Positions 5,790 through 29,200 are shown, counted from the first letter of the stretch. The stretch: DNA of 64,000 nt from Candidatus Aldehydirespirator sp. (GCA_965203635.1 OZ241903.1:3047547-3111546), one strand, 5' to 3'. Notes: generated by a model from the sequence alone, not told the origin. Program-made: numbers and translations.

Positions 5790-6955
5790 TGGACTTCGCC
5801 ATGCCGGCAGGGGCGGAGGCGTTCCGGGAGGAGGTCCAGCAGTTCCTGGCCGACCACCTGACCGGCGAGATGATCGCGGCGACCCGCGACGGCACCATCC
5901 ACTCCCCCGCTCTGCACCGGGCCATCGCGGATCGGGGCTGGCTGTCGGGCGCGGTGCCGGCCGAACTCGGCGGGGGCGGCATGGACCCGGTCGAGCTGTG
6001 CGTGCTGCTCGAGGAGCTGCAGCTCCACCAGGCGCCCGCCGACGCGTTGGGGGTGGCCGTGGTAGCAGTGTCGATGATCCTCGAGCACGGCCGCGATCAT
6101 CTGCGCAGCACGGTGGCCCCCCGGCTGATGTCGGGCGAGGCTCTGGCATGCCTGGGCTACAGCGAGCCCGAGTCGGGCTCGGACGTGGCCGCGGCCCGCA
6201 CCCGGGCCGTGCGCGACGGCGACCGGTGGATCATCAACGGCTCCAAGATGTGGACGACCCTGGCCCACGTGGCCGACTACGTGCTGCTGCTCACCCGGAC
6301 CGACCCCGAGGTGCCCAAGCACCGAGGGCTGACGTTCTTCGTGGTGCCCCTCGACACGGCCGGCATCGAGATCCAGGCCGTCGAGACGATGGGAAACGAG
6401 AGGTCCAACGCCACCTTCTACGACGACGTGGTGCTCGGCGACGAGTGGCGCCTCGGCGAGGTGAACGACGGCTGGACGGTGATGAAGACCGCCCTGAAGT
6501 ACGAGCGGGGCATCGCCGGCGGCCAGTTCCCGTCGCCTCCGGTGATCGAGGCGGCGGTCGACTGGGCCCGCCGGGCCCGCCGGGCCGACGGCAGCCGCCT
6601 CATCGACGACGACGAGGTGCGCCACAGGCTGGTGCGGGCCATGATCGACGTGGAGGTGTGCCGCAGCTTCGCCTACCACACCGCGGCGCTGGCCTCGGAG
6701 GGGGCCATGTTCGGGGTGGAGGGGTCGATGACCAAGCTGTTCGCGTCGGAGTCCTACAAGAAGCACTGCGCCTGGTTCCTCGACATGATGGGCGCCGAGG
6801 GGCTGCTCACCCACGACGATCCCGGCGCCCACATGGAGGGCCGGATCGAGGAGCACTTCCGCCACGCCCCGGTGACCGCCATCTACGGCGGCACCAGCGA
6901 GATCAACCGCAACCTGGTGGCCGAGGGCTGGCTGGGCCTGCCCCGGTCGCGTTGA
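5786..6955 (+). CDS. acyl-CoA dehydrogenase family protein
   Basis: 389 aa. Motifs are GYSEPESGSDVAAARTRAVRDGDRWIINGSKMWTT (the ACAD middle beta-domain signature) and IYGGTSEINRNLVAE. GTG 5786 and ATG 5789 overlap the upstream TGA (GTGATG). Confidence 0.85.
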   Translation: MMDFAMPAGAEAFREEVQQFLADHLTGEMIAATRDGTIHSPALHRAIADRGWLSGAVPAELGGGGMDPVELCVLLEELQLHQAPADALGVAVVAVSMILEHGRDHLRSTVAPRLMSGEALACLGYSEPESGSDVAAARTRAVRDGDRWIINGSKMWTTLAHVADYVLLLTRTDPEVPKHRGLTFFVVPLDTAGIEIQAVETMGNERSNATFYDDVVLGDEWRLGEVNDGWTVMKTALKYERGIAGGQFPSPPVIEAAVDWARRARRADGSRLIDDDEVRHRLVRAMIDVEVCRSFAYHTAALASEGAMFGVEGSMTKLFASESYKKHCAWFLDMMGAEGLLTHDDPGAHMEGRIEEHFRHAPVTAIYGGTSEINRNLVAEGWLGLPRSR

Positions 6956-7001
6956 GCGAGCTTGGAGCGCATCGCTACACGTCGTAGCCTGATCAGTCGC
7001 A

Positions 7002-7075
7002 CGGGACGTGGCGCAGCCAGGTAGCGCACCTGCTTTGGGAGCAGGGGGTCGCCGGTTCAAATCCGGCCGTCCCGA
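7002..7075 (+). tRNA. tRNA-Pro (anticodon UGG)
   Basis: A hand-folded 74-nt cloverleaf fits. Acceptor stem is CGGGACG/CGTCCCG with discriminator A, and D arm is GCGC-AGCCAGGTA-GCGC. Anticodon arm is CCTGC-TTTGGGA-GCAGG (anticodon TGG), variable loop is GGGTC, and T arm is GCCGG-TTCAAAT-CCGGC. No encoded CCA. Confidence 0.9.
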
Positions 7076-7086
7076 CTCGTACCACC

Positions 7087-8625
7087 ATGAGCCAACTTCA
7101 CGAAGCCCAGCGCCGGGCCGATCCGATCAAGCGATATGTAGCGCCCGAGTCGTTGGAGGACGCCTTGGACGTGCTCGCGGCGCGCGGCCCCTCGGCCCGA
7201 GCGATCGCCGGCGGCACCGACCTGCTGCTGGAACTCAGCCGCGGCGCGAGGACCGGCATCGACACGCTCGTTGATCTGAGCGTGCTCGACGGGCTCGACA
7301 CCATCACCGAGCACCGCGGGCGGGTCGAGTTGGGGCCCCTGGTCACCCACGGCGACATAGTCGGGTGGGAGCGGATGCTGTCGGTCGGGCTCCCGCTCGC
7401 GCAGGCCTGCCTGGAGGTCGGGGGTCCGCAGCTTCGCAACCGGGCCACGATCGTCGGCAACATCGTCACGGCCAGCCCCGCCAACGACACCATCTCCGCG
7501 CTGTACGCGCTGGGTGCCGACGTGACCGTCTCGGCGGCCGGAGGCGGCCACCGGACCATGCCGATCGAGGACTTCTTCACCGGTTTCCGCACCACCGCGC
7601 TGGAGCCGGGCGAACTCGTGACCAGGATCTCCTTCGACGCGCTCGGCGGGGGCCGCCGGGGCGTCTTCGTGAAGCTCGGGCTGCGGAGGGCTCAGGCCAT
7701 CTCGGTGGTCCACGCGGCCGCGGTCGTCACCGAGGGCAGCGACGGAACCGTCGCCGACCTGGTGGTGGCCCTCGGCAGCGTCGGCCCGACCATCGAGCTG
7801 GTGGACGCGGCGGCCGGCATAGCCAGGGGCCGGCTCCTCAACGAGGCAGCCGCCGACGTCGCGGCCGCGTCCCGGGCTGCGGTCACACCCATCGACGACC
7901 TGCGCTCCACCGCCGAGTACCGCAGCCACACGGTCGAGGTGGTGGTGGAGCGGGCGCTGCGCTCCCTGGCCGCCGGCACTGAGGCCGCCACCTGGCCCCA
8001 GAGCCCGCCCCGCCTGGTCGTCGTCCCAGACTTCCCGGCACCATCAGCGCCCGAGGAGCCCTCCCGGCGGGAGATCAACAACTCCAGCACCATCACCGCC
8101 AGCATCAACGGCGTCGAGCGCCGCGCCGCCAACGCTGCGGGCCAGACGCTGCTGGACTGGCTGCGATTCGACCTCGGGCTGACCGGCACCAAGGAGGGCT
8201 GCGCCGAGGGCGAGTGCGGAGCCTGCACCGTCCACCTCGACGGCCGGGCCGTGTTGTCGTGCCTGGTGCCCGCCGCCCGCGCCGACGGCACGAGCATCAC
8301 AACAGTCGAGGGCCTGGCCCCGCCCGACGGGAGCCTGCACCCTGTCCAGCAGGCCCTGGCCGACTGCGGGGGCGTCCAGTGCGGCTTCTGCACCCCCGGG
8401 TTCGTGATGAGCGCGGCCATGCTGGCCGACGAGGAGCCCCACCCGAGCCGGGAACAGGTGGAGCACGGCCTGGCCGGGAACCTGTGCCGCTGCACCGGGT
8501 ACTACTCGATCATCGACGCCCTCGCGGGCAGCGGCGAGGAGGCCACACCGCGAATTGGCAGCCGGGAACACCCGAATCGGACTCCCCCGCTGCCAATTCC
8601 TTCCGGCGAGGCCGCGCTCGGATGA
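7087..8625 (+). CDS. xanthine dehydrogenase-family molybdoenzyme, fused FAD-binding and [2Fe-2S] subunit
   Basis: The N-terminal ~290 aa is a CO-dehydrogenase-flavoprotein-type FAD domain (IAGGTDLLLEL, RNRATIVGNIVTASPANDT, STAEYRSH). A P/S-rich linker follows. The C-terminal ~160 aa carries two Fe-S cluster motifs (GCAEGECGACTV, CGFCTPGF, NLCRCTGY). Confidence 0.85.
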   Translation: MSQLHEAQRRADPIKRYVAPESLEDALDVLAARGPSARAIAGGTDLLLELSRGARTGIDTLVDLSVLDGLDTITEHRGRVELGPLVTHGDIVGWERMLSVGLPLAQACLEVGGPQLRNRATIVGNIVTASPANDTISALYALGADVTVSAAGGGHRTMPIEDFFTGFRTTALEPGELVTRISFDALGGGRRGVFVKLGLRRAQAISVVHAAAVVTEGSDGTVADLVVALGSVGPTIELVDAAAGIARGRLLNEAAADVAAASRAAVTPIDDLRSTAEYRSHTVEVVVERALRSLAAGTEAATWPQSPPRLVVVPDFPAPSAPEEPSRREINNSSTITASINGVERRAANAAGQTLLDWLRFDLGLTGTKEGCAEGECGACTVHLDGRAVLSCLVPAARADGTSITTVEGLAPPDGSLHPVQQALADCGGVQCGFCTPGFVMSAAMLADEEPHPSREQVEHGLAGNLCRCTGYYSIIDALAGSGEEATPRIGSREHPNRTPPLPIPSGEAALG

Positions 8626-10862
8626 GCGTCGGCGCCTCCCCGGCCCGCATCGATGCGCCGGCCAAGCTCACCGGCGCGGCCGAGTACCCGAGCGACAGGA
8701 TCCCGCCCGACGCGCTGTGGGCCATGGCGGTGTTCACCGACCAGCCCCACGCCCGCCTGATCAGCCTCGACCTGGAGGCCGCTCGGGCCGTCGAGGGAGT
8801 GGTGGCGGTGTTCGGCTCGGCCGATGTGCCCGTCAACGAGTTCGGCCTCACCATGGCCGACCATCCCGTGTTCGTCGGCCTCGAGCACACGGGCCGCAGC
8901 CATCTGCCCTGCGACGTTTCCCGCTGGGAGGCGGACCGGCTGGCGCTGGTCGTGGCCGAGACGCCCGACGCGGCCCGGGCGGCGGCGGCCGCCATCGAGG
9001 CCCGGTGGGAGCCGTTGCCGGTGCTGGCCGACATCGACCAGTCGCTGTCGTCGGAGACGATGATCCACCCCGAGAACGGCGAGCCCTCCAACGCCTACTA
9101 CTCGCTGCGCATCCGCAAGGGGGACATGGACCGGGGCTGGGCCGACGCCGACGTGGTGGTGGAGTCGACCTACGAGTTCCCCTACCAGGAGCACGCCTAC
9201 CTGCAGCCCGAGGCGGGCATGGCCTACATCGACGGCGAGGGCCGGGTGACGGTGGAGGTCGCGGGCCAGTGGACGCACGAGGACCAGGAGCAGATCGCTC
9301 ACGCCCTCGACCTGCCGGCCGAGCGGGTCCGGGTGATCTACCCGGCTATCGGCGGCGCCTTCGGCGGCCGCGAGGACATTTCGGTCCAGATCGTGCTGGG
9401 TCTGGCCGCGATGGTGCTCCACGAGCGGGGCATCGATCGCCCGGTGGCCACCGTGTGGTCGCGCGAGGAGTCGATCGTCGGGCACGGCAAGCGCCACCGG
9501 GGCCGCATCACAGCCCGCTGGGGCGCCCGGCGCGACGGCCGCATCACCGCGGTGAGCAGCACGGCCTGGCTCGACGCGGGGGCCTACAACTTCACCTCCA
9601 ACAAGGTGCTGGGCAACTGCCACCTGCACCAGGCGGGGCCCTACGAGGTGCCCAACGCCGAGATCGACAGCGTCGCGGTGTACACCAACGCCACTCCGGC
9701 CGGCGCGTTCCGGGGCTTCGGCGCCCCCCAGGGCGCCTTCGCGGCCGAGAGCCAGATCAACAAGCTGGCTGAGGCGCTGGGTATGGACCCGGTGGAGATC
9801 CGCCGCGTCAACACCCTGCGCGAGGGCAGCGTCGGCATCACCCAGGCGGCCATGCCCGAGGGCGTGACCATGCCCGAGGTGATCGACCGCTGCGCCGAGG
9901 CCGCGGCGGAGCCCGCCTCCAACGGCGACGGCGCGGCCTTCAGCCCGTTCCCCTCGCTGCCGCCCGAGCCGTCGGCCCTTCGCCGGGGCCGGGGGTTCGC
10001 CTGCTCGTTCAAGAACGTCGGATTCTCGTTCGGCTTCCCGGAGCGGAGCGAGGCCGAGATCGTGCTCCACGGCGGCCACGATTCCGACGTGCCTGAATGG
10101 GCCGAGCTCTATCACGCCGGCGCGGAGGTGGGCCAGGGCGCCCACACGGCGCTGGTGCAGATGGCCGCCGAGGCCACCGGGCTTCCCGCGGACCGCATCG
10201 AGCACCGCTTCAGCGACACGGCTACCTCCGGCGACGCGGGCTCGGCGTCGGCGTCGAGGCTCACGTGGATGTCGGGCAACGCGATCCTGGGCGCGGCCGA
10301 GGAGGCCGAGAAGGCCTGGCGGGACGGCCAGCGCCCGGCTGCGGGCCGTTTCCGCTTCGTGCCTCCGCCCACGGAGACGCTCGACCCCGTCGACGGCCAC
10401 TGCGTCCCCAACTTCAGCTACGGCTACGTGGCCCAGCACGTTGAGCTCACGGTGGACACCGGAACGGGTCACATCCGCATCGACCGGGTGGTGAGCGCCC
10501 ACGACGTCGGGCGGGCCATCAACCCGGACCTGGTGGTGGGCCAGATCGAGGGTGCGGTCATCCAGGCCCACGGATACGCGCTGAGCGAGAACCTCCAATC
10601 GGACGGTGGCCGCCTGCAGAACATGCGCCTGAGCACCTACCTGATGCCCGGCATCGGCGACATCCCCACCACCGTCGACAGCGTGGTGCTGGAGCTGGCC
10701 GACCCGCTCGGACCGTGGGGCGCCCGGGGCATGGCCGAGATGGGCATGATCCCCTACGCCCCCGCGGTGACGGCCGCCCTCCACGACGCCACCGGCGTCT
10801 GGTTCGACAGCTTCCCCCTCACCCCCGACCGGGTCCTGGCCGGCCTAGCTGCGGCGCAATAG
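8622..10862 (+). CDS. xanthine dehydrogenase-family molybdopterin-binding large subunit
   Basis: ATG 8622 overlaps the upstream stop (ATGA). Motifs are AIGGAFGGREDIS, FRGFGAPQG and the C-terminal GARGMAEMG (catalytic-Glu region). The 8214 start in the ORF track lies inside the upstream gene. Confidence 0.85.
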   Translation: MSVGASPARIDAPAKLTGAAEYPSDRIPPDALWAMAVFTDQPHARLISLDLEAARAVEGVVAVFGSADVPVNEFGLTMADHPVFVGLEHTGRSHLPCDVSRWEADRLALVVAETPDAARAAAAAIEARWEPLPVLADIDQSLSSETMIHPENGEPSNAYYSLRIRKGDMDRGWADADVVVESTYEFPYQEHAYLQPEAGMAYIDGEGRVTVEVAGQWTHEDQEQIAHALDLPAERVRVIYPAIGGAFGGREDISVQIVLGLAAMVLHERGIDRPVATVWSREESIVGHGKRHRGRITARWGARRDGRITAVSSTAWLDAGAYNFTSNKVLGNCHLHQAGPYEVPNAEIDSVAVYTNATPAGAFRGFGAPQGAFAAESQINKLAEALGMDPVEIRRVNTLREGSVGITQAAMPEGVTMPEVIDRCAEAAAEPASNGDGAAFSPFPSLPPEPSALRRGRGFACSFKNVGFSFGFPERSEAEIVLHGGHDSDVPEWAELYHAGAEVGQGAHTALVQMAAEATGLPADRIEHRFSDTATSGDAGSASASRLTWMSGNAILGAAEEAEKAWRDGQRPAAGRFRFVPPPTETLDPVDGHCVPNFSYGYVAQHVELTVDTGTGHIRIDRVVSAHDVGRAINPDLVVGQIEGAVIQAHGYALSENLQSDGGRLQNMRLSTYLMPGIGDIPTTVDSVVLELADPLGPWGARGMAEMGMIPYAPAVTAALHDATGVWFDSFPLTPDRVLAGLAAAQ
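10572..10837. repeat. direct repeat copy 1 (native 3' end of the xdh large-subunit gene)
   Basis: Aligns without gaps at a constant offset of 1888 nt to 12460..12725, with about eight mismatches counted by eye, mostly third-codon positions. Confidence 0.9.
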
Positions 10863-11081
10863 CCGCGACCTTCATCGGCCCTCGAGGCCGTCCGCAGCCG
10901 CCGCATCCGGTCCCCGGCTCTCGGCCTGATACGAGGCCGCTTCGGCGTCGCTCAGACCGTCGAGTGCACCTCGAACGGACGACCACCACTCGTCGCGGCC
11001 GAGCCGGCGCACTGCGTCGATCACCACATCCACCATAGTTGTGCCCCGCTGCTTCGCAGTGGCGGCCGCAGCACAGTCGTC

Positions 11082-12383
11082 TCAGGGTGCTAGGGCGGTG
11101 AGAGGGGCTACTGCTACGCCGTCGGGGCGCTCGTAGGCGTATCCGCCGGCGGTGACGACGAGCAGTTTGGCCGGCTCGCCCGCCTTGTCGAGGTTCACCT
11201 TGTTGCGCAGCCGCAGCAGCGCGGCTGCGGCGTCGTCAGGGCCGCGGCCGCCCCCGAGCTTGATCTCGGCAGCGATCCATCGCCCGTCGGAGCGCTCCAG
11301 GATGGCGTCCACCTCCAGTCCGGTGTTGTCGCGGTAGTAGTGGATCCGAGCGTCGTTGGCGTCGGCGTACACCCGCAGGTCGCGCACGGCCAGCGCCTCG
11401 AACAGCGCGCCGAAGCCTCTCGGGTCGGCCATGAGCCGGGCCCGGTTGGACCGCAGCGCCGCCACCGCCAGCGAGGGGTCCACGAGATAGCGCTTCGGGG
11501 TGACCGCGATGTGGGCCCGGGACCGCAGGTCCGCGGGCCACGGCGTGAGATGCTCCAGAACGAACAACTGCTCCAGGGCCGACAGATAGGCGGCCACCGT
11601 CCTGGGGTCCGCGGGGCGAATGGTGTCCATGTCGGACGCGAGGACCCGCCGCGAGGCGCTGGTGGCGATGTTGCGGGCCAGCGACTCCAACAGCCGGGCC
11701 ACACCCGCCGGGTCGCGGCGGGCCCGGTCCACGTACTCGATGTCGGCCTTGCAGAGGTCGGACAGGTAGTCGCGCAGCAGCTGCTGGGCACCCGCGCCGT
11801 CGGCGTCCAACAGCGCGGGCCAGCCGCCCCGGCACACCAGCTCGTAGATGTCGGGCTCGTCGCCGGCCGCGGGCGCCGACACCTCCTCGGAGTCGAACAG
11901 GTCCCCCAGCGACACCGCCCCCGACGACTCCTCAGACTCGAGTAGCGTCATGGGCCGCATCCGCACCCTGCGCACCCGCCCGGCCCCGGTGTGGCGGGTG
12001 TGGCTGTCGGGCGGCACCGCCGAGCCGGTCAGGATGAACTGTCCCGGCAGTCCCAGCTCGTCGCAGGCCCGCCGCATCGGGTTCCAGATGCCCGGCGACA
12101 GGTGGTACTCGTCTATGAGCCGAGGCCGCTCGCCCTCCAGCAGCAGCCGCCTCGCCATGGCCGAGGTGACGGCGGCCGACTCCTCGGCGTCGATCAGCAC
12201 CGCGCTGCGGGCGGCGCTGCCGCCGGTCCACGTCTTGCCGCAAGCGCGCGGCCCCTCGATCAGCACCGCCGGCGCCACTCTGAGAGCCCGCTGAAGCAGC
12301 CCGTCCGCGATCCGGGGCCGGTACCGCCCACGGATCGTCTCCAGCAGCGGATGCTCGCGCAGACTGCTCTCCACCACGTCCAA
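11082..12383 (-). CDS. AAA+ ATPase with C-terminal DUF4143 / PD-(D/E)xK-like domain
   Basis: 433 aa. P-loop LIEGPRACGKTW. The C-terminal GLEVDAILERSDGRWIAAEIKLGG fits a D...E-x-K nuclease-fold motif, as in the AAA_14+DUF4143 architecture. The gene is high GC. Confidence 0.8.
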   Translation of the reverse strand: MDVVESSLREHPLLETIRGRYRPRIADGLLQRALRVAPAVLIEGPRACGKTWTGGSAARSAVLIDAEESAAVTSAMARRLLLEGERPRLIDEYHLSPGIWNPMRRACDELGLPGQFILTGSAVPPDSHTRHTGAGRVRRVRMRPMTLLESEESSGAVSLGDLFDSEEVSAPAAGDEPDIYELVCRGGWPALLDADGAGAQQLLRDYLSDLCKADIEYVDRARRDPAGVARLLESLARNIATSASRRVLASDMDTIRPADPRTVAAYLSALEQLFVLEHLTPWPADLRSRAHIAVTPKRYLVDPSLAVAALRSNRARLMADPRGFGALFEALAVRDLRVYADANDARIHYYRDNTGLEVDAILERSDGRWIAAEIKLGGGRGPDDAAAALLRLRNKVNLDKAGEPAKLLVVTAGGYAYERPDGVAVAPLTALAP

Positions 12384-12459: not shown

Positions 12460-12725
12460 GGCTACGCGCTCAGCGAGAACCTCCAATCAGACGGTGGCCG
12501 CCTGCAGAACATGCGCCTGAGCACCTACCTGATGCCCGGCATCGGCGACATCCCCACCACCGTCGACAGCGTCGTGCTGGAGCTGGCCGACCCGCTCGGC
12601 CCCTGGGGCGCCCGGGGCATGGCCGAGATGGGCATGATCCCCTACGCCCCCGCGGTGACGGCCGCCCTTCACGACGCCACCGGCGTCTGGTTCGACAGCT
12701 TCCCCCTCGCCCCCGACCGGGTCCT
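12460..12725. repeat. direct repeat copy 2 (duplicated xdh 3' end)
   Basis: See copy 1. It encodes GYALSENLQSDGGRLQNMRLSTYLMPGIGDIPTTVDSVVLELADPLGPWGARGMAEMGMIPYAPAVTAALHDATGVWFDSFPLAPDRVL, almost identical to the C-terminus of the intact xdh product. Confidence 0.9.
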
Positions 12726-12771: not shown

Positions 12772-12994
12772 CATTCCGCGATCCAGCGATTATCAACTCA
12801 CCCCCAGCCACAGCTTCTAGGCGACCAAAGCGACCCCTATCAGGACACCCTTCACCACGAATTCCCGAACTCCCATTGGAGCCAGCCCGCCGCGGTACTA
12901 TGTCACAGCCAGCGCGTGCCCATCGATCTTCGGATCGAAGAGGCGCTAGTTGGGGGCCTAACCGTCCTTCGATCACCAGAGAATCCAATACGCG

Positions 12995-14509
12995 ATGTTC
13001 TCCTTCTACAGATCGACTTTCAAGGCGTACTTGACGGTCGTCAAGGCTTCCAGTCGAGTTCTCCAAAGCGCAATCAACAACGCACGCTTTCAACATCCGC
13101 GATCGGGCGCAGCCCCTATCGTCCTAGGACCGTCACACAGCGCTCCAGCTCCGAATTCCTCAAGCCGAAACGTCTGGGACTATCGAGGGGTCGCAGCGCC
13201 GAGGGATATCAACCCTCACGAGGTCGATTTTCCACTGGGCAGGTATCGAGAGCCCAAACGTTGGAAAGCAACGGCTCCCATAGGTGTATCTCGTCGCATT
13301 GCGAACCATCACACGGCTGTCTTCGGGCCAACGCGTTCTGGAAAGACCATGTCAATCATCGTTCCTTGGATATATCACGCTCTGAAGCAAGGGTTTACAG
13401 TACTGGCTATCGATGTTAAGGGAAATGATGATCTACTCAGCGCTGTCCGTCAGTATGCCAAGCATTGCGGACCATTGAACATACCGTCATTCAAGTGGGA
13501 CTACACGGACGCCGCCAATTCCTTTTCCTGGAATTGGATACGAGATGCCATTACTCCCGGAGAAATCAATAGCGCCATAGATGCCATATGTGGTATGCCC
13601 TCACCTAACGATCCAAATCAGTTCTTCCATGATTGTGCTACCCGATATTTGCGATCTCTTCTAGAACTCTCAGCTGTCATTCCCCACTCGTTGTCAGCAC
13701 AAGATCTCTTCGTTCTGGTGAACGACCAAGAAAAGATGATTCCTCTTGTTCACGCCTACCAGGGCCATAGAGCATCGGCTGCTCTCCTCGAGCTAACGCG
13801 TCTCGATCCGACAGATTATGCCAATCGAGTTGCAGTGCTCGTCAACCATTTGACTCCATTGATCGCGACTGAGTTCTTAAGCGTGACGACGAACGACAGC
13901 CAGAATATCACCATAGACTGGCTCTGGAGTACCGATCCGAAGTTAACCATTGTAACCGCTCCATTAGCAGATGGAAAGTTAGCCACATCCGCTTCGGCAC
14001 TATTCTTGGGACAATTTCTCCAAAATGTGAAGGCACGCTTGGGTACTGGATCCGCAAACAGGCCAGTCCTGTTGGTGCTCGATGAGGCACCGCGACTACA
14101 AGATAGAATAGACCTCGGTGCGATCCTCTCGACAGTCGCCCAAGCAAACGTGAGCGTATTGCTAGCATTACAGGATGTGTCGCAACTCAGTGATACTGTA
14201 AGAGATGAGATCTTGTCGAACTGCGCCACGAAGATCTGCCTTCCAAGGGTCTCTGAAGCGACGACCCGCTACTTCACTAGCCAATTGGGGGAAATCTATC
14301 TTGATTCAAAGTCGGTGAACACCGGCGACAGTAGCCGTACGGTTCGGTCAAGTTCCTGGACTCATACTACTGAACTACGGCCGGTTTTGAGCCACCGTGA
14401 AATCGCTCATCCGCCGACCCGATTTGGAAATTGGACGGGAACAGTGCATTCTCCAGATCTATCACATGCACCGATAGTTACAGATCTGACGAGAACGGAT
14501 CTGTTATGA
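12995..14509 (+). CDS. soluble type IV coupling protein-like (TraD/TraG/VirD4 family) P-loop ATPase
   Basis: 504 aa. Walker A HHTAVFGPTRSGKT, Walker B PVLLVLDEAPRL. Downstream T4CP-like blocks are AQANVSVLLALQDVSQLSD and ILSNCATKICLPRVSEATTRYFTSQLGE. No N-terminal transmembrane helices are evident. Start is uncertain. Confidence 0.7.
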   Translation: MFSFYRSTFKAYLTVVKASSRVLQSAINNARFQHPRSGAAPIVLGPSHSAPAPNSSSRNVWDYRGVAAPRDINPHEVDFPLGRYREPKRWKATAPIGVSRRIANHHTAVFGPTRSGKTMSIIVPWIYHALKQGFTVLAIDVKGNDDLLSAVRQYAKHCGPLNIPSFKWDYTDAANSFSWNWIRDAITPGEINSAIDAICGMPSPNDPNQFFHDCATRYLRSLLELSAVIPHSLSAQDLFVLVNDQEKMIPLVHAYQGHRASAALLELTRLDPTDYANRVAVLVNHLTPLIATEFLSVTTNDSQNITIDWLWSTDPKLTIVTAPLADGKLATSASALFLGQFLQNVKARLGTGSANRPVLLVLDEAPRLQDRIDLGAILSTVAQANVSVLLALQDVSQLSDTVRDEILSNCATKICLPRVSEATTRYFTSQLGEIYLDSKSVNTGDSSRTVRSSSWTHTTELRPVLSHREIAHPPTRFGNWTGTVHSPDLSHAPIVTDLTRTDLL

Positions 14510-14546
14510 TATGTGCCCCCTAGTCAGGCCGACCTAAGTCACTTCA

Positions 14547-16886
14547 TTATGTCGTGTCTGTTGACAGCAGTCCTTCGATTGTGGAAATCGGGAATCCCAA
14601 CGCAAGCAAGGCCGCTACCGGATCTTCGACATCGGCAGGAATCTCGACAGAAAGTTGCAACGGACTCGTAAAGAGCACATACACTGTCTCGCCCGATCCA
14701 ACGAGGCAGATCTCATCTTCCCCGCACGATATCCATCCCGGAGCAATGAATGCCGCCCCTAGGTATGCGATGACGGCTGGCCTAACTGAATCATGGCGAT
14801 CCTTCGGCCATACACGAGTCGCATCAAAAAATGATGGCTTAGCGTCGCGCAGTGAACCATCTGGTGACCATCTTGCGTGCATATCTTGGAAGTCACTGTC
14901 TGTCTCTTGGCGCAGATTTGAACCGTCTGCAGCGAGAGTAAAGATCTCCGAATCCCCATCGTGCACGCTGCTGTAGCTGATCCGTCCGCCATCAGGCAGC
15001 CACGTTGGGAAGAAGTCTCGTATTTCATTGTGAGTCAGTTGCTCGAGAGAAGAGCCGTCGCTATCGATCAGAAAGATCTCAGAATCCCCATCTCTATCGC
15101 TCTCGAAGACCAGGCGAGAGCCATCCGGTGAGAACTGGGCATTGCTGTCGGAGCTATCGTTGTGGGTCAACTGTCGGAGATTGCGGCCATACAGATCCAT
15201 GATAAAGAGTTCAAAATCACCATCGCGATCACTGTAGAACGCAAAGTCTACGCCATTCGGCGACCAAGATGTAGGTATATCAGTCGATTCACTATTAGTT
15301 AGACGGCGTTGGAACCTCCCCTCGGGATCGGAAACATATATCTCAAGCTGTCCGTCCCGATTGCTTGAGAATAGTATCAGATTGCTGGAATATGACCATA
15401 CAGGGAAGATGTCACTAAACTCATTAGTCGTAAGTTGATGCATCGTCAAACCGTCTACATTTCTTACAAAAATCTCCAAGTCGCCATCCGTAGAGCTTGC
15501 ATATGCAATGCGCTCTGCGTCCGGAGCCCATGTTGGCCACAACTCGTCATCCGATTCCCCCGACAAAACCCTTTCAGTTCCACGGTCGAGATTCCTTACG
15601 ACGATACGCGGGTGTTCTTCCCGCCAGGATATGTAGGCCATCTGTCGATCTGGGAAGGTGGAGACATTCGACTGCGGCACCTCCGCCTCTCCATCTGCGC
15701 CTTCTGCGCTCAACATGCCGGAAGGCGTCTCTGGCAGCGGCGCCGGCGCCTCGCCTACGATAGATCGCGACGTTGTCTCATCTCCGTCTTGCCCAAGCAG
15801 TCCGGCAATGATGAGCAGTATCACTGCGAGCACGCCAGCCGCGACCAGCCATCGGGGGGCCCGCCTTGACCGGGAAGGTCCAGGTCTTACCCCACCGGCG
15901 AGCTGGCCGATACGAGCGACGGCCGCCGGCTGTCCAGTCCCATGCGTCCCAACCACTGGTCGTGTCCCATAAACAGGAGCGACACGCAACTGCCCCGGGG
16001 CCTTAGTCGAGGCCTTCGCCTTTGCTCTCCGTACGGGCGAAAGCCATTCCGTCGGTTGAGGACGATCCGTCTGGTCGGGCGACAGGCTCCGTTCGATGAG
16101 CCTCTGGATTTCGGACGGGACGCGACCGCGAACCCGCGATGCATCTCTCGAGGCCTGTTCTCCTGCAAAGAGACGGAGCGCTACAAGGCCCAACTTGTAG
16201 ACATCCGTATACCGGGTGCCGAGTTTCTCTCGTGGAAACACTGCCTCGATAGACCAGTCCGGTGTCTCGTTCTGGGATTCGACACCCCGACCCTCCAACG
16301 CCATGGAATCACAGTCAATCAAGTAGACACGTGACCTTGGCACAAACGAAAACAGCAGATTGCGTGCCGAAAGATCTCCCACAACAATACCACGAGAGTG
16401 CATCCACTCTAGGGATTCTCCCAACTTCTCGATGACTTCATATCGTTGACGGTCGCTTACCCGTAGTCCGATACGGTTCAGATACTCTGGCGGCTTCAGG
16501 AGTAGTTGCAAATCACCAATGTGCTCCATCGGTTGTCCTGAAATGCCCCGCAGTGTCAAGAAGAAGGGTCGAGGAACCTTCGGCATAATAAACCCCGACA
16601 GCATGCCTCCCCGTTCTACTAACTGACAGGGCCAAGCAGCGAAATTCAGAAGCGTTTCCCTATCTTCAATGCTCAGCTCTGAAAAATACTGCTGTCTCGC
16701 TTCCAGTGCTTCAATATCGCCGGTCGATGGGCGCTGTGTGTAGTGCTTATAGACCGTCTCCGCAGTGAAACCGCCTGTATCCAGCTCAATCAAGCCACCC
16801 GGTGCTTCGTAGACCGTCCCCTCTCCGCCGCTTGCGATGACCTTTAGCCCATCCAAATCGAGACTAGTAGCATCTAGACGCGACAC
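14547..16886 (-). CDS. membrane Ser/Thr protein kinase with extracytoplasmic PD40/TolB-like beta-propeller (TerY-P kinase component)
   Basis: 779 aa. Glycine loop ASGGEGTVY, catalytic loop VVGDLSARNLL, DFG-equivalent LIDCDS. One TM helix WLVAAGVLAVILLIIAGLLG (about nt 15792-15851). Then 5-6 repeats of the type WSPDG/WAPDA..I.F.S.RDGD.EI. (about nt 14850-15640). Confidence 0.85.
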   Translation of the reverse strand: MSRLDATSLDLDGLKVIASGGEGTVYEAPGGLIELDTGGFTAETVYKHYTQRPSTGDIEALEARQQYFSELSIEDRETLLNFAAWPCQLVERGGMLSGFIMPKVPRPFFLTLRGISGQPMEHIGDLQLLLKPPEYLNRIGLRVSDRQRYEVIEKLGESLEWMHSRGIVVGDLSARNLLFSFVPRSRVYLIDCDSMALEGRGVESQNETPDWSIEAVFPREKLGTRYTDVYKLGLVALRLFAGEQASRDASRVRGRVPSEIQRLIERSLSPDQTDRPQPTEWLSPVRRAKAKASTKAPGQLRVAPVYGTRPVVGTHGTGQPAAVARIGQLAGGVRPGPSRSRRAPRWLVAAGVLAVILLIIAGLLGQDGDETTSRSIVGEAPAPLPETPSGMLSAEGADGEAEVPQSNVSTFPDRQMAYISWREEHPRIVVRNLDRGTERVLSGESDDELWPTWAPDAERIAYASSTDGDLEIFVRNVDGLTMHQLTTNEFSDIFPVWSYSSNLILFSSNRDGQLEIYVSDPEGRFQRRLTNSESTDIPTSWSPNGVDFAFYSDRDGDFELFIMDLYGRNLRQLTHNDSSDSNAQFSPDGSRLVFESDRDGDSEIFLIDSDGSSLEQLTHNEIRDFFPTWLPDGGRISYSSVHDGDSEIFTLAADGSNLRQETDSDFQDMHARWSPDGSLRDAKPSFFDATRVWPKDRHDSVRPAVIAYLGAAFIAPGWISCGEDEICLVGSGETVYVLFTSPLQLSVEIPADVEDPVAALLALGFPISTIEGLLSTDTT

Positions 16887-16994
16887 ATGCGCCCCATTCC
16901 TATTACTGTACCTGCTTCAGCACGCACACCATCGAAGCTAGCAACCAGTTCAGACTCCACGCTACCGATCAATTGGGCGCTTCCGCATCCGAGA

Positions 16995-18164
16995 TCATCC
17001 CCAAGTAATCGACCATTGGTTCACTTCCAAGTACCCGAGAATAGCCGCAGCGATTAATACTCCAACGATACCCGCCAAGACGATGCCAGTAAAGAGCCAA
17101 GGCCATCGACGCTTCCGCCTTGATGGCTGTCGCCTATCAGTCATGTCATCGGTGATTTCAACCTCGGCGCAAGTTTCTGCCGCCTCCAGACTCTCAGTTA
17201 TGCTCTTCGAGCTGGCGCTTACCTGAGTCAGATTCATATCACTGCAAGCGCCATCATCTGACGCATTTAGCCACACCGCGACCAGCGTCCGGTCGTCATC
17301 ATATGTGTCTCTTGAGAAGTCAAGCTTATGGGCGAATTCGTATATCGAGGGAACTCGATCCATTAGCGTCTCTGCAAACAGTCGCCCGACCTCGCCACTA
17401 CCATCGCCGAGAGGATCCCCGAATCCATCCGTTCCTAGAAGGAGAGCACTCCGACGATTCAACGTTATCTTGGAAACACTAGGCACTTTTGGAACACGTG
17501 GCAATGGAATCACACTAGACATGATGACGCCCTGGAGCGTATCTGGTACGTGTCCTACAATCGCTGCAATATTGTCACCGTCAAGAATCCAGGCACCAGA
17601 ATCCCCGACGCTGACGACTTCAACTACAGCAGTCCTATCCTCTTGAGCGTCGATGACTGCACATATGAGCGTCGTAGCAAGGAGCGACTCGGCACTCTCA
17701 GCATCCTCGGTGCCAAAAACATCAGTCGCCTTCTGGATCATCCCCCACGCGATTTGTTCAATGATGTTCGCCCAATCAATGCAGTCCAGGTCTTCGACCT
17801 CTCGCCCCATCACATGAACTGCATATTGAACTGCTGTCGTGCTTCCTACATGCGACTGAGGAGATTGCGATACACCATCGGCCACAGCTACCAGAAGACG
17901 GCTACCGCCATTATGCACTGTGATAGCAAAATCATCCTGTCGCGGTGTCCCAAAGTATCGGTGGGCATGTCCTCTTAGGGATGCAGCCCTAATCACAAAA
18001 TGGTCATTTTCCCATCCATCGAGAACGGAATCAGCGCGATACGGGTATGGGTGGAAGCGTTCCTCAACGGCACGGGGTTCAATGGAGGGGCCGGGATTGC
18101 CAATCACTACGGGTTCTGACGAAAGCCACTGTCTGGGTTTTGGCACGACGAAATCCTTACCCAA
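16995..18164 (-). CDS. PP2C-family protein phosphatase with C-terminal membrane anchor (TerY-P phosphatase component)
   Basis: 389 aa with TTG start after GGGGAG. PP2C blocks are LLVAVADGVSQS, VVSVGDSGAWIL, LLLGTDGFGDPL and DDRTLVAVWL. The C-terminal hydrophobic helix is WPWLFTGIVLAGIVGVLIAAAILGYL. Confidence 0.8.
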   Translation of the reverse strand: MGKDFVVPKPRQWLSSEPVVIGNPGPSIEPRAVEERFHPYPYRADSVLDGWENDHFVIRAASLRGHAHRYFGTPRQDDFAITVHNGGSRLLVAVADGVSQSPQSHVGSTTAVQYAVHVMGREVEDLDCIDWANIIEQIAWGMIQKATDVFGTEDAESAESLLATTLICAVIDAQEDRTAVVEVVSVGDSGAWILDGDNIAAIVGHVPDTLQGVIMSSVIPLPRVPKVPSVSKITLNRRSALLLGTDGFGDPLGDGSGEVGRLFAETLMDRVPSIYEFAHKLDFSRDTYDDDRTLVAVWLNASDDGACSDMNLTQVSASSKSITESLEAAETCAEVEITDDMTDRRQPSRRKRRWPWLFTGIVLAGIVGVLIAAAILGYLEVNQWSITWG

Positions 18165-18235
18165 GCGGGAGTGACTCCCCTCAAATGAGGGTCAAAGCCG
18201 ACGATATTGCGAGCGTGTCGTGGTCTTTACTGAAT

Positions 18236-18922
18236 CTATACTAGGCCCGTGTCAATCGGGATGAATCCAGTCGGCTCCTTTAGCAGAATATCCGTATTTC
18301 CTTTCTCTGCGGCACGAGCCGATACTATGATCGTATGCGTCAGAATTTCAATAAACTCGGTTATAGCGGCGGCCGGATCCATCTGCTCAGATGCTGTCCA
18401 GGCGTATTTCGTTCCGTCCGGTGCTTCAGTCGCTACATGCTCGATCACGGCTGGAACTGCGTCTCCGAACCCAAACGCGAAGATGTTCGGTCGTGCGCGC
18501 AGGTCGTTGAGCCGATCAAGAATCGACTCCCACCGATCACCAGTATTAGGTTGACCATCAGAAAGAAAGAACACGGCGGGACGAAACACAGCAAATCCGC
18601 CGTCGTTTAGGCGCTTCACATGGTCAGGTATCCTCGATTCAAGCGACTCAAATGCGGCAGCGTAGGACGTAGAGTTTCGGGCATGCAGCTTGGGAACATG
18701 TTCCAAGTCACTGACGTCCTCCAACTCCAGATGCCAGATCCCATCATTGGAAAAGCCAAGCACCGACAAGCGCGCCTTGGAACTGGCAAACGGTTCTAGT
18801 CGTATCTTCTCAATGAGATCTTCTAAGGCACTATTGAGGCGATCTATCACTGCTGACATCGAATAGGACTCGTCTATCACGATATATATTGGAAGCACAC
18901 GTGCTTGCTCTTCATTCGTCAA
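18236..18922 (-). CDS. TerY-like von Willebrand factor A domain protein (TerY-P vWA component)
   Basis: 228 aa. MIDAS motif in IYIVIDESYSMS, with FLSDGQPNTG and IFAFGFGD blocks typical of TerY-type vWA proteins. It is first in a co-directional vWA-PP2C-kinase series. Confidence 0.8.
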   Translation of the reverse strand: MTNEEQARVLPIYIVIDESYSMSAVIDRLNSALEDLIEKIRLEPFASSKARLSVLGFSNDGIWHLELEDVSDLEHVPKLHARNSTSYAAAFESLESRIPDHVKRLNDGGFAVFRPAVFFLSDGQPNTGDRWESILDRLNDLRARPNIFAFGFGDAVPAVIEHVATEAPDGTKYAWTASEQMDPAAAITEFIEILTHTIIVSARAAEKGNTDILLKEPTGFIPIDTGLV

Positions 18923-19021
18923 CTCAGCAATCCTTTCACGTCGAACCGTCCCAGCTATCTATCAGACTACATGATCTTCCCAAGCACATGCAATGGAGTG
19001 GGCCGTGCTCGTCGACAGCCC

Positions 19022-19279
19022 TTACGGCTTGTGGCGATACTTCGGAGGGTCGGGCTTCTTGCCGCGTAGAATCAGCCTTCCCCTTTCGGTCAACTCAGGA
19101 GGCGGGGGGCGACCGGTAACAAACTGTTTGGCCGCTTCCTTGAGATTCTGCTTGAAAGTTGGTCGCCTGACGACCCCCAAGTCCACAGCCGCGTTGTATT
19201 CCTCAGTCGACAGTTTGCCATCCGCCGCCCTCTGTGCCAGATAGGTCTCCTCGGGCGACACTTCGTTGCTATGCGACAT
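19022..19279 (-). CDS. hypothetical small basic protein
   Basis: 85-aa ATG ORF upstream of, and co-directional with, the vWA gene, with island-like composition. No recognisable motif. Confidence 0.4.
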   Translation of the reverse strand: MSHSNEVSPEETYLAQRAADGKLSTEEYNAAVDLGVVRRPTFKQNLKEAAKQFVTGRPPPPELTERGRLILRGKKPDPPKYRHKP

Positions 19280-19420
19280 GCTCTTCGCTCTCTGCCTTGA
19301 CGGATCCTCTGGGTTGTCTCCGAGGATACCTCCTCTATGGCTTGTTGGCGGCGAATGCAGTGACTCCGAGCCGACTCCGAGCCATCTGCAACGTCAATCA
19401 GCGGGTGCCTGCGCCGTCGA

Positions 19421-26286: not shown

Positions 26287-29200
26287 CTAGGGCTCGGCGG
26301 GGATCACCACCAGAACGGCGGACTCGATCTGGGCGGAGTCGCCGACCAGGATGGCCACACCGGCGGCGGGAGGACCGCCTGCGGGCACGGTGTAGGCCAG
26401 GGTGGCGGAGATGGTGCCGTCGCTGTTCGGGGTGATGGACGTCCGGTTGATGATGTCGCAGTCGGTCGGCGAGATGGAGTCCGCGCCGGCGGCGGGGACT
26501 GTGCAGAACAGCGCGAGGAGCCCCAGCGTCCAGTTGCCGCCGGTCAGCTGGAACTCGTGGCGGCTGCCCGCCGCGGCGTCGGCGCGGTCGACGGACTCGG
26601 GCTCCACCTCGAACCAGGGCCCGGTGCGGATCACGGGCTCGGTCCCGGGCTCCGCGGCGGCGATCACTGCGGCCTCGGCGGTCTCGATCTGGGCGGGGTC
26701 GCCCACCGCGACGGCCACGCCGTAGGCGGGCGGGCCTGACGGCGGGACGGTGTAGGTCAGCGTGGCGGTGATGGTGCCGTCGCTGCCGGGGGTGATGGGC
26801 GTGAGGTTGGAGATGTCGCAGTCGGTCTGGCCCATCACCTCGATGCCGCCGGCGGGGATCGCGCAGAACAGGCCGAACAAGTCGAGGCTCCAGTTCCCGC
26901 CGGTCACGGTGAACTCGTACTTGCCGCCGGGGGCCGCCGCGGCCCGGTCGACCGACTTGGGCGTCACCGTGATCCACGGCCCCGACGGCGGCTCGGGCGC
27001 GATCACCACCGCCGCCGCGGACTCGGCGCCGTCTGAGCTGGTGAATCTGATGGCCACCCCGCCCTCGGGGGGTCCCCCAGAGGGCACGGTGTAGGTCATG
27101 GTGGCGGTGAACCCGCCTTCGGCCACGGTCACGTCCACGCCGCCGGGGCCGTCGCAGCCGGCGTCGGCGATGGCGTCGATGCCGTCTTCGGTCAGTTCGC
27201 AGAACACGCCCGACAGCGACGCCGCGCTCCAGTTGGCGCCGGTCACGGTGAACTCGACGGTCTGGCGGGCGCGCAGCGTGTCGCGGTCCACCTCAGGCGA
27301 CGCCGAGACGGCAGGCCGCGGGGCTGCCTCGATCACCACCGCGGCGGCGGATTCCTCGCCGTCGCTGCCGGTGACCAGCACAGCAACGCCCGACTCGGGC
27401 AGACCCCCGGCGGGCACCGTGTAGGACACGCGGACCGCGAAGGCGCCCGCCGACGGCGCCGCGGTTACTTCGCCGCCGGTGCAGGACCCCGCGTTGACCG
27501 AGCCGAGCCCGCCGGCGGGGGTCTCACACAACACCAGCGACACCGACTCGCTGGCCCAGTTGGTGCCCGACACCACCACGAGCTGCCGGTCGCCGGGCGC
27601 CAGCGTGCTCCGGTCGATCGGCGCGGGCGACACCGCCGCCACCGACACGGTCGGGGCTGCGAACGCCCGCACGATCGGTGTCGCGATGAGCGGCTTGAGG
27701 GTCTTCGGCAGCAGCGATTCCATTACCTCGACGGTCACCGCACCGTCGGCGCTGCTGGCCCGCAGAGCGACGCCGTAGGGCGGGACGCCTTCCTCGGGCG
27801 CCCGGTAGAGGACCCCCACCGAGAACGCTCCGCCAGCATCGGGGGTCGCCGAGCCGACGGGCTCGTCGCAGCCGTCGGCGCCGATCTCGCCCACGCCGCC
27901 GGCCCCCATCTCGCAGAACGCCACCGACACCGGCTCGGGGGTCCAGCCCGAGCCCGACACCGTGAAAGTCCACCACTTGCGGGTGGCGCGCTCGCTGCGC
28001 TCCACCCCAGGGGGCGACACCGAGATCACCGGCTGAACCGCGGGCGGGATCGCCACGACGGTCGCGGCCTCGGCCCCCAGCGACGCGGCCGTCTCGACCC
28101 CGAGCGTCCCGGCCGCCTCGGCCACGTCAGCGGGAACACCCAGCGCGGACACGGTCACGCCGTCGGCGGGCACGCCGCCCGAGGGCACCACATAGGCCAT
28201 CCGCACGGTGAAGCTGCCGTCCGACGGCGCGACCGGCACGGCCGCCCCCCAGTCGCAGCCGTCGCCGCCGGAGCTGTCCTCGCCGGAGTCCTCGCCGCCG
28301 GAGCCGTCCTCGCCGCCGGGGTCCTCGCCGCTGCTTGCGGGAGTCGCGCAGAACGCCAACAACACCGACTCGCTGGTCCAGTGAGTGCCCGACACCATGA
28401 ACACCTGCCGGTCGCCGGGCGCCAGCATGCTCCGGTCCACCGTGGAGGGCGACACCGGCGAGATCGACAGCGCAGGCGCCGGAGCGGGCGGTGACGCCTG
28501 AGCGTCGGGATCGAACACGACCACGGCCACACCGCCGCGGGGGACCCCGTCCTCGGGCACCTCGTGCATCACCGACACCGAGGCGTTGCCGCCGGTCACC
28601 GACTCGGTCACCGAGGTCACCAGGTCGCAGTCGGCCGCGGTTATCTCCTCCACCCCTCCCGGCGGGATGCGGCACACCGCCACCACCACGGTCTCGGTGT
28701 TCAAGCCCGACACCGACACCTCGATGTCCTGCTCCTCGCCGGGCTTGAGATCGGTCCGGTCCACCTCCGGCGTCGGCACCCACACCTCCGGCGGCTGCAC
28801 CTCGGCGCCGGGCACCGCGGAGATGACCAGCTGGAAGGCGATCTCGGTCTCGGTCGGGTCGCCGAACCCGATGACCACGCCCCGCTCGGGGATGCCGTCG
28901 GCGGGCACCGTGTAGGTGATGGAGATCGTGAACGTGCCGCCCGGGCCGAGCTCGAGCACCTGCACGGTGTAGGTGATGTCGCAGTCGGACCGGCTGGCCG
29001 CGTCGATGCCCCCGGGCGGGATCACGCAGAACGCCCCGAACGGCGCCAGCGTCCAGCCCGAGCCTCGCACCGTGAACGTCTTCTTCTCGCCCACGCTCAG
29101 CGAGTTGCGGTCCACGAACCCCGGCGACACCGTGATCTGCGGCCCGCCCTCGGGCGGAGCGGCCGGGATCACCACCGCCACCGCCGACTCGTCGCCGGCG

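Follow-up and report, generated by a model that had tools for sequence, protein, structure and literature searches.

What kind of system is formed by three consecutive genes for a von Willebrand factor A (vWA) protein, a PP2C phosphatase and a receptor-like Ser/Thr kinase, and what is it doing in a low-GC island of a GC-rich genome? The genes occupy positions 14,547 to 18,922 of a 64,000-nucleotide stretch of Candidatus Aldehydirespirator sp. (GCA_965203635.1 OZ241903.1:3047547-3111546), here called the window, with all positions counted from its first letter. Our analysis favors, with moderate confidence, a horizontally acquired four-gene signaling module. It would represent a membrane-receptor branch, widespread in Actinomycetota, of the TerY-phosphorylation (TerY-P) triad, and in the window a soluble ATPase resembling type IV coupling proteins (T4CPs) would be coupled to it. 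The identity and predicted topology of the module, taken jointly, are very probable.

The three open reading frames (ORFs) are intact and follow one another on the minus strand in the order vWA, PP2C, kinase, with gaps of 71 nt (vWA to PP2C) and 108 nt (PP2C to kinase). The vWA protein has DESYS at residue 17 and LSDG at 120; the phosphatase has ADGVS (95), GDSG (187), TDGF (245), and DDRT (290); and the kinase has GGEGTV (20), DLSARN (171), and IDCDS (190). The initial annotation had proposed this gene order from the sequence, and every ORF and every motif that it quoted was recovered. Pfam identifies VWA in the first protein (E = 1e-6), PP2C_2 in the second (E = 4e-18), and five stretches of PD40 in the C-terminal part of the third (E = 2.5e-36). 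The kinase domain scores 24.5 bits against Pfam Pkinase, below the 31.7-bit cut-off, and is thus divergent. The catalytic and metal-binding positions are strictly conserved. The metal ion-dependent adhesion site (MIDAS) of the vWA protein is complete (D17, S19, S21, T85, and D122) and invariant across 26 homologs, the metal-binding Asp motifs of the phosphatase are invariant in 21 homologs, and K47, D171, N176, and D191-C-D193-S of the kinase are invariant in 26. The public gene call for the kinase (P0030) is 660 amino acids (aa) long, starts at Met120, and excludes the G-loop and catalytic lysine; the GTG start at 16886 is favored because homologs align from residues ~3–14. Database searches by the N-terminal domain miss the window's own protein, since P0030 lacks that part. 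The gene order is far from a chance arrangement: in 76 of 85 other loci retrieved by the kinase domain alone, vWA and PP2C homologs are present, nearly always immediately upstream and in the same order.

The TerY-P triad is said to go back to Anantharaman, Iyer and Aravind (2012), as cited in PMC11090510 and PMC4978471. As the canonical reference we used the ter locus of IncHI2 plasmid NZ_KY270852, in which the order is TerY, TerX (annotated as a TerD-family protein), TerY, TerY with TerY_C, PP2C, and kinase; TerY_C sits there on a vWA protein. Alignment of family profiles with hhalign connects each window protein to its IncHI2 counterpart: 26 vWA homologs to TerY (99.4% probability, E = 7e-22, 191 columns), 21 PP2C homologs to the plasmid PP2C over the whole catalytic domain (98%, E = 2.4e-13, 250 columns), and 26 kinase homologs to the plasmid kinase (97%, E = 9e-11, 256 columns). 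Identity between the window triad and canonical TerY-P proteins is 24–29%, and the gene order is the same. By BLASTP the phosphatases share 27% identity over 318 residues (E = 6e-9) and the kinases 24% over 209 residues, and a tblastn search of plasmids with the window vWA protein matched TerY genes of enterobacterial ter loci in 2279 records (23–29% identity, E down to 2e-9). The window and IncHI2 kinases also have the idiosyncratic motifs W-P, ID[CV]D, TPD[WF], and RP..EW in common. When the PDB was searched with the kinase profile, the best stretch of most matches, PknB included, fell entirely within the C-lobe or catalytic-loop portion of the profile (positions ~97–296). These alignments uphold the TerY-P identity first proposed from motifs and gene order, and on profile evidence the window triad is a distant but genuine TerY-P relative.

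Dedicated defense-system models neither add to nor subtract from this assignment. In PADLOC-DB v2.0.0 the window vWA protein and phosphatase have no match even at E = 10, and the canonical IncHI2 vWA protein and phosphatase have none either; because the canonical control is also blank, the result is uninformative, not negative. The window kinase has generic kinase matches only (MkoA, PD-T4-6, and mad6, the last at E = 2.7e-4), and the IncHI2 kinase gives the same weak ones. NCBIfam likewise returns weak sub-threshold kinase models for the window kinase (LanL/LanKC, Bud32, and Kdo kinase), a pattern shared by the IncHI2 kinase.

The kinase is predicted to cross the membrane once, placing its catalytic domain in the cytoplasm and the propeller and tail on the outer side. 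An AlphaFold2 model of residues 1–298 shows a bilobal protein-kinase fold (mean predicted local distance difference test score, pLDDT, 85.9; predicted template modeling score, pTM, 0.83), and a Foldseek search with it retrieves eukaryotic-type kinases (E ~5e-12, TM-scores 0.5–0.56). A Pro/Ala/Arg-rich linker joins this domain to a single membrane helix, whose core (residues 347–365) has a 19-residue Kyte-Doolittle (KD) hydropathy of 2.89; five Lys/Arg are found in the 15 residues before it, and one Lys/Arg and three Asp/Glu after it. The C-terminal 414 residues are placed outside the cytoplasm because the kinase domain needs ATP. The positive-inside rule holds, with one helix following each cytoplasmic catalytic domain, that of the kinase and that of the phosphatase, and homologous kinases carry PknH_C or LppP/LprE, domains known to be extracellular in actinobacteria, at the position of the window propeller. 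AlphaFold2, run on a 37-sequence alignment, builds residues ~414–679 as a six-blade propeller with pLDDT above 90. This model superposes on Escherichia coli TolB at 2.2–2.3 Å over 267 columns, TolB being the best PDB match (E = 1.7e-21); the NCBIfam TolB propeller model matches the kinase at E = 1.4e-54, yet under its curated cut-off. The tail of ~100 residues has no Pfam family and no homolog among 356 fetched proteins save the window's own copy, and its model is of low confidence (pLDDT 40–76).

The phosphatase is predicted to be tail-anchored to the same membrane. Its C-terminal extension of ~90 residues includes an acidic linker of ~55 residues before the anchor, and the helix core (residues 361–379) has a KD value of 2.66, with six Lys/Arg before it and none after. 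Among 82 homologous phosphatases the window's is the only one with such a helix; the others stop just past LVAVWPR. The architecture outlined in the initial annotation is thereby borne out in each of its parts: hydrophobicity, the positive-inside rule, and homologous ectodomains agree on a transmembrane (TM) helix and a propeller outside the cytoplasm; its 5–6 PD40/TolB-like blades become six in the structure prediction, which superposes on TolB; the further C-terminal domain of ~100 aa is present as a tail with no family match and a low-confidence model; and hydropathy and charge bias fit a TM helix near the end of the phosphatase.

Features of the window island and of the proteins it encodes (amino acid residues are numbered from the start of each protein)
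Feature	Position	Strand	Description
Low-GC island	12800-19400	strandless	Four genes and an 85-aa ORF
T4CP/VirD4/TraD-like P-loop ATPase	12995-14509	plus	504 aa, soluble, convergent with kinase gene
Kinase gene	14547-16886	minus	Divergent ePK-like (eukaryotic-type) kinase, 779 aa
Kinase C-terminal tail	14550-14849	minus	~100 residues, predicted extracytoplasmic
PD40/TolB-like propeller	14850-15647	minus	Residues ~414-679, six blades, predicted extracytoplasmic
Kinase membrane helix	15783-15851	minus	Residues ~346-368, predicted
Kinase domain	15993-16886	minus	Residues 1-298, predicted cytoplasmic; G-loop GGEGTV, K47, catalytic D171/N176, IDCDS
PP2C gene	16995-18164	minus	PP2C_2-type Ser/Thr phosphatase, 389 aa
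PP2C membrane helix	17028-17108	minus	Residues ~353-379, predicted; RRQPSRRKRR before, 10-residue tail after
PP2C catalytic domain	17271-18032	minus	~Residues 45-298
vWA gene	18236-18922	minus	TerY-type vWA protein, 228 aa, predicted cytoplasmic, without hydrophobic helix
85-aa ORF	19022-19279	minus	Upstream of vWA gene

A scan with the kinase domain over one genome per species found 138 relatives, of which 78 distinct loci were kept. Almost all belong to Actinomycetota, among them Nocardia, Mycobacterium, Corynebacterium, Tsukamurella, Micromonospora, Actinoplanes, Streptomyces, Catenulispora, Acidimicrobiia, and Solirubrobacterales. In these 78 mostly actinobacterial genomes, ~95 of 105 homologous kinases have a membrane helix 40–80 residues past the kinase domain, and their tails beyond the helix measure 0–329 residues, the 414 of the window kinase being the longest. 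The ectodomains vary: a YNCE/NHL-type propeller in Nocardia, LppP/LprE, PknH_C, unknown Cys-rich domains, DUF6273 (L006), and SH3_3 (L088), with SnoaL-like matches that are weak and sub-threshold only. A second PD40 fusion occurs in locus L087, where an uncalled 680-aa ORF joins a kinase of the window-kinase family, a membrane helix, and PD40 repeats; gene calling had broken this kinase up, so that it came to light only when the ORFs themselves were read. The full kinase was also compared with 1.84 billion representative proteins; the best 150 matches were dominated by multi-propeller proteins, and local re-screening gave no called fusion of the window-kinase family and only two weak generic kinase-PD40 proteins.

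A receptor-like kinase is thus a property of the clade, and the PD40 propeller with its tail and the anchored phosphatase are particular to the window. The novelty that the initial annotation saw in the membrane receptor architecture accordingly divides: the PD40 fusion is rare (one other case) and the tail-anchored phosphatase is confined to one of 82 homologs, but the membrane-bound kinase is common. The literature searched, which did not extend to the 2012 founding paper, holds no description of a transmembrane, ectodomain-bearing TerY-P branch. In 17 loci (including L003, L002, L021, L053–L055, L059, L063, L066, L067, L073, L075, L078, and L081) the triad is extended upstream by a protein of ~775 aa with a weak P-loop ATPase signature (aa 137–181) and one of ~608 aa whose C-terminal third is a second TerY-like vWA domain.

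The fourth gene encodes the T4CP-like ATPase. It matches Pfam T4SS-DNA_transf (E = 2.8e-17, 63.2 bits) and TraG-D_C (E = 2.8e-15, 56.8 bits), both above the cut-offs, and has intact Walker A (GPTRSGKT, 111) and Walker B (LLVLDE, 359) motifs; its NCBIfam equivalog scores lie far under every curated cut-off. There is no N-terminal membrane helix, and the sole 19-residue window above KD 1.6 (374–392, 1.77) lies inside the ATPase domain. The family is tight (~500 aa, 60 proteins). A member adjoins a vWA gene in all six contexts examined, and in five of them a PP2C and a kinase of the window-kinase family are present as well. The order is vWA, PP2C, ATPase, kinase in L005; vWA, PP2C, small gene, ATPase, kinase in L006, L087, and L088; and vWA, PP2C, kinase, two unknown genes, ATPase in L090 (Amycolatopsis). 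In L089 the vWA gene adjoins the ATPase within a DO-GTPase/GAP1/HSP70 cluster. The four contexts retrieved through the ATPase itself (L087–L090) have an adjacent vWA gene in every case and a PP2C and kinase of the window-kinase family in three, and their genes are homologous to the window proteins by BLASTP. Neighbor joining of 116 kinase domains puts the window together with L001 and near other ATPase-linked loci, with L090 as the deepest branch. This recurrence makes the ATPase a likely fourth component of the module, judged from sequence and gene neighborhood, and we lean toward regarding it as a functional partner of the triad. In the extended loci, the ~775-aa P-loop protein may take the place of the T4CP-like ATPase as NTPase partner.

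The small gene between PP2C and ATPase encodes 147–186 aa (L006 2664–3212, L087 7542–7985, and L088 1438–1998) with a conserved GNHRIRAA motif. Its matches to the ParB N-terminal domain are sub-threshold only (E about 0.01), and it has no PDB relative.

Several known systems resemble the module in part. TerY-P itself is reported to be active against T7-like phages (Gao et al. 2020, as summarized in PMC7699616 and PMC11090510) and has been proposed to act as a phosphorylation switch (PMC7699616; PMC11090510). TerY-P modules occur in CoCoNuT type II and III-A loci (PMC11090510), and ATPases of the FtsK/EssC and VirB4 kinds are reported in association with TerY-P and with TerY-like vWA genes (PMC11090510; PMC4978471). 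The window module has the same TerY-like vWA protein with a MIDAS, PP2C_2 phosphatase, and divergent ePK-like kinase in the same order, and association with an ATPase of the FtsK/HerA superfamily is a further point in common (PMC11090510; PMC4978471). In contrast, the described TerY-P kinases are cytoplasmic, whereas the window kinase ends in a predicted membrane helix, PD40 propeller, and tail and its phosphatase is tail-anchored; TerD/TerZ, McrBC, and helicase-nuclease genes are absent near the triad, and its ATPase is T4CP-like rather than EssC/FtsK- or VirB4-like. Type IV coupling proteins share with that ATPase the two Pfam domains matched above threshold, but the window protein has no N-terminal anchor and no relaxase or mating-pore genes nearby, its neighbors being the triad, a duplicated gene fragment, and a DUF4143 ATPase.

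Likeness to the MADS system is limited to the ATPase, which matches PADLOC mad8 (E = 1.2e-11), and to the kinase, which matches mad6 weakly, as the canonical TerY-P kinase does. Membership of MADS was rejected, since the mad8-like and mad6-like matches (E = 1.2e-11 and 2.7e-4) were the only ones and no other mad protein, methyltransferase included, was matched in the six genes scanned.

Membrane kinases of other bacteria offer likenesses of architecture. In the PpkA-PppA-Fha1 pathway of the H1 type VI secretion system of Pseudomonas aeruginosa, a membrane Ser/Thr kinase, a vWA domain, and a PP2C phosphatase convey an envelope signal to an ATPase-driven export machine. In PpkA, kinase and vWA domain form one protein, the vWA domain being extracytoplasmic, and output passes through an FHA protein to the type VI apparatus. 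FHA and type VI genes are absent from the window island; the likeness is one of architecture. The kinase-plus-vWA architecture of PpkA has been described (PMC1262709).

The mycobacterial kinases PknD (kinase, TM helix, NHL propeller) and PknH (kinase, TM helix, PknH_C), together with the membrane PP2C PstP, have the layout seen in the window, and YNCE/NHL propellers and PknH_C domains are found among the relatives of the window kinase. They differ in that the window kinase falls under the Pkinase threshold, with the fold still that of a protein kinase, and in that its fixed partners are a TerY-type vWA protein and a PP2C_2 phosphatase, not FHA proteins. A newly described system of Actinomycetales, Esr (epibiont sensing and response), combines a surface beta-propeller sensor with a vWA protein and a Ser/Thr kinase and phosphatase (Wang et al., bioRxiv 2026, PMC13622651); its sensor domain is the most diversified part, and its output is sometimes fused to the FtsK-family ATPase EccC (PMC13622651). 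The resemblance is an analogy of design principle, by description only: Esr employs a separate secreted filamentous sensor (EsrA, with Ig repeats and a beta-propeller) along with a MoxR ATPase, a transglutaminase, and an FHA output protein. The window island encodes none of these; its propeller and kinase form one polypeptide, and its vWA protein is TerY-type.

The module has been horizontally acquired. The island extends over ~6.6 kb at ~52% GC (profile 47–55%) and is sharply bounded by flanks of 69–75% in a genome of ~71% GC, a difference that indicates recent acquisition. It contains five ORFs in total and no relaxase, integrase, or mating-pore genes; its 85-aa ORF has no family match and is unlike the small gene that precedes vWA in L001. 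The relatives show signs of mobility too. Flanks align between close relatives, and between more distant species of one genus the module alone aligns. One copy is carried by a Streptomyces plasmid, with transposases around it and a restriction endonuclease nearby, and the closest relative of the window module is located between transposases.

The ectodomain is the part that diverges fastest. Among Nocardia, identities are 85–95% for the vWA protein, 73–89% for the kinase domain and phosphatase, and 58–78% for the ectodomain, and in Mycobacterium fragae (L023) paralogous kinases have kinase domains that are 100% identical and ectodomains that are 29% identical, as if sensor cassettes were exchanged behind a homogenized kinase domain. 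The L023 kinases (at 10001, 13915, and 6430–7203) stand beside a single vWA-PP2C pair, and two or three paralogous membrane kinases per pair occur in L023, L027, L032, and L038. Such mobility and ectodomain divergence are typical of conflict-related sensors and are not proof of such a role.

In L087 (ENA ERZ25072384, a 4.39-Mb contig) a perfect 1317-nt inverted repeat (9236–10552 and 12772–14088) covers the 3′ end of the T4CP-like gene and the N-terminal domain of the kinase. The 2219-nt segment between its arms encodes two alternative kinase C-termini: one strand specifies a TM helix with PD40, the other four TM helices. An inversion would exchange the sensor part of the expressed kinase; the arrangement may be a real switch or an assembly artifact. 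The PD40 blades at 10722–11593 are 132-nt tandem repeats with 98–100% DNA identity, with a frameshift into the ORF at 11408–12265; recent repeat expansion or long-read error may be the cause. Public gene calls split this kinase into fragments.

To the left of the window island lies a 266-nt direct repeat, 97% identical between its copies (10572–10837 and 12460–12725), which duplicates the 3′ end of a molybdopterin-dehydrogenase-like gene (8214–10862). The sole gene between the copies encodes a DUF4143/AAA_14 ATPase (11082–12383, minus strand; PADLOC PDC-S01, E = 1.3e-61). The arrangement resembles a scar left where something inserted at the 3′ end of the gene, and it directly abuts the island. 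On the other side, positions 26287–63960 of the minus strand form a single ORF of 12,557 aa, whose N-terminal and middle slices are full of Big_9, Cadherin_4/5, and Cadherin repeats and whose last 1600 residues match no family strongly. Judging by these repeats, the protein resembles a giant surface adhesin, and the ORF accounts for the strong AT skew in the right half of the window.

A working mechanism can be proposed for the four-gene module. The propeller would bind an extracytoplasmic ligand, for which an envelope fragment, a surface-attached phage, or another antagonist are candidates, and binding would activate the kinase, probably by a change of oligomeric state. The kinase could then phosphorylate the cytoplasmic TerY-like vWA protein, the ATPase, or both, and the membrane-tethered phosphatase would reset the switch. 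The vWA protein, through its MIDAS, might gate the T4CP-like ATPase of the FtsK/HerA superfamily as the output, maybe for translocation of nucleic acid or protein. This scheme is plausible because TerY-P has been proposed to be a phosphorylation switch, protects against T7-like phages, and is associated with ATPases (PMC7699616; PMC11090510; PMC4978471).

Some observations pull the other way. The window ATPase gene is convergent with the triad rather than co-oriented, the small ParB-like gene is absent from the window, and most of the 78 loci have the triad without a T4CP-like ATPase; given the inverted ATPase gene and the missing ParB-like gene, rearrangement or partial decay may have shaped the window arrangement. 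Intergenic scans for promoters, terminators, and hairpins gave chance-level results and no support for co-transcription. The C-terminus of the window kinase has no TerY_C or OB-fold match, and described TerY-P kinases end in a zinc ribbon/TerY-C in Ter and CoCoNuT loci or in an OB fold in the system of Gao et al. (PMC11090510). Of ten neighbor genes compared with PADLOC, eight had no match, one matched PDC-S39, and one matched mad8 weakly (E = 7.6e-4). No kinase-domain homolog was found in 50,697 phage records, a result on which a phage origin of the module was rejected.

The main rival, unlikely in our estimate but to be taken seriously, is that the genes form an ordinary envelope-sensing pair like PknD/PknH and PstP, regulating cell-wall, nutrient, or developmental physiology, with the vWA protein as a substrate or scaffold, no role in defense, and an unrelated ATPase. 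The sequence of kinase domain, helix, and propeller or PknH_C does mirror PknD and PknH of M. tuberculosis (PMC1262709), the conserved flanks among close relatives fit stable chromosomal residence, most loci have no recognizable defense neighbors, and homologs are absent from the phage genomes searched. Yet a kinase that scores below the Pkinase cut-off is not a canonical Hanks kinase, and over its whole domain it resembles the TerY-P kinase; its invariant partner is a TerY-type vWA protein, not the FHA protein typical of housekeeping kinases. Further points against it are a window copy in a foreign low-GC island and a module that shifts between genomic contexts, near transposases. Ectodomains that act as swapped cassettes behind identical kinase domains, and an ATPase family that recurs beside the triad, also count against this reading.

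The ATPase could instead be the leftover coupling protein of a decayed integrative or conjugative element, with the triad as passenger cargo and no functional link between them. Pfam and NCBIfam place the protein among VirD4/TraD/TraG, the island is foreign by composition, the gene is convergent with the triad, and the 266-nt duplication of a gene 3′ end just to the left is of the sort that integration sites often leave. That repeat, however, flanks the DUF4143 ATPase gene and not the island, whose five ORFs include no relaxase, integrase, or mating-pore gene; N-terminal membrane helices, a feature of coupling proteins, are missing from the ATPase; and its ~500-aa family is found beside vWA genes in every context examined, with PP2C and kinase in all but one, and not beside conjugation genes. 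We regard this origin as highly improbable. Mere chance adjacency, or a pseudogenized leftover without function, would explain why the order differs from that of the closest ATPase-containing relatives and why the small ParB-like gene is missing, but four full-length ORFs with intact catalytic motifs and a triad order kept in 76 of 85 loci make it scarcely credible.

The coupled receptor module that we favor leaves room for different functions. A role in conflict or defense rather than housekeeping is suggested by analogy and falls somewhat short of an even chance, an anti-phage role being an extrapolation; defense candidates nearby are PDC-S01 beside the window island and PDC-S39 in L088. A more specific and speculative version, which we consider doubtful, is a surface-surveillance immune system in which fast-evolving cassette ectodomains would sense phage adsorption, an epibiont, or an injected effector, and the kinase would switch a TerY-type vWA/T4CP-like ATPase effector by reversible phosphorylation. 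On that reading the trigger would lie outside the cell, as opposed to intracellular phage components, and some loci (L087 and L023) may switch sensors by DNA inversion or gene conversion.

TerY-P has experimental support as an anti-phage system, and its described forms are cytoplasmic; a membrane-receptor branch would point to input from the cell surface. The ectodomains in this branch appear interchangeable and quickly diverging, ranging over PD40, YNCE/NHL, PknH_C, LppP/LprE, and SH3 domains, and in this the branch parallels the newly reported Esr epibiont sensing in actinobacteria. The recurrent T4CP-like ATPase is a candidate output. Since members of the clade occur in 78 or more species-level genomes, Nocardia, Mycobacterium, Corynebacterium, Streptomyces, and Micromonospora among them, any function found for the module would apply broadly.

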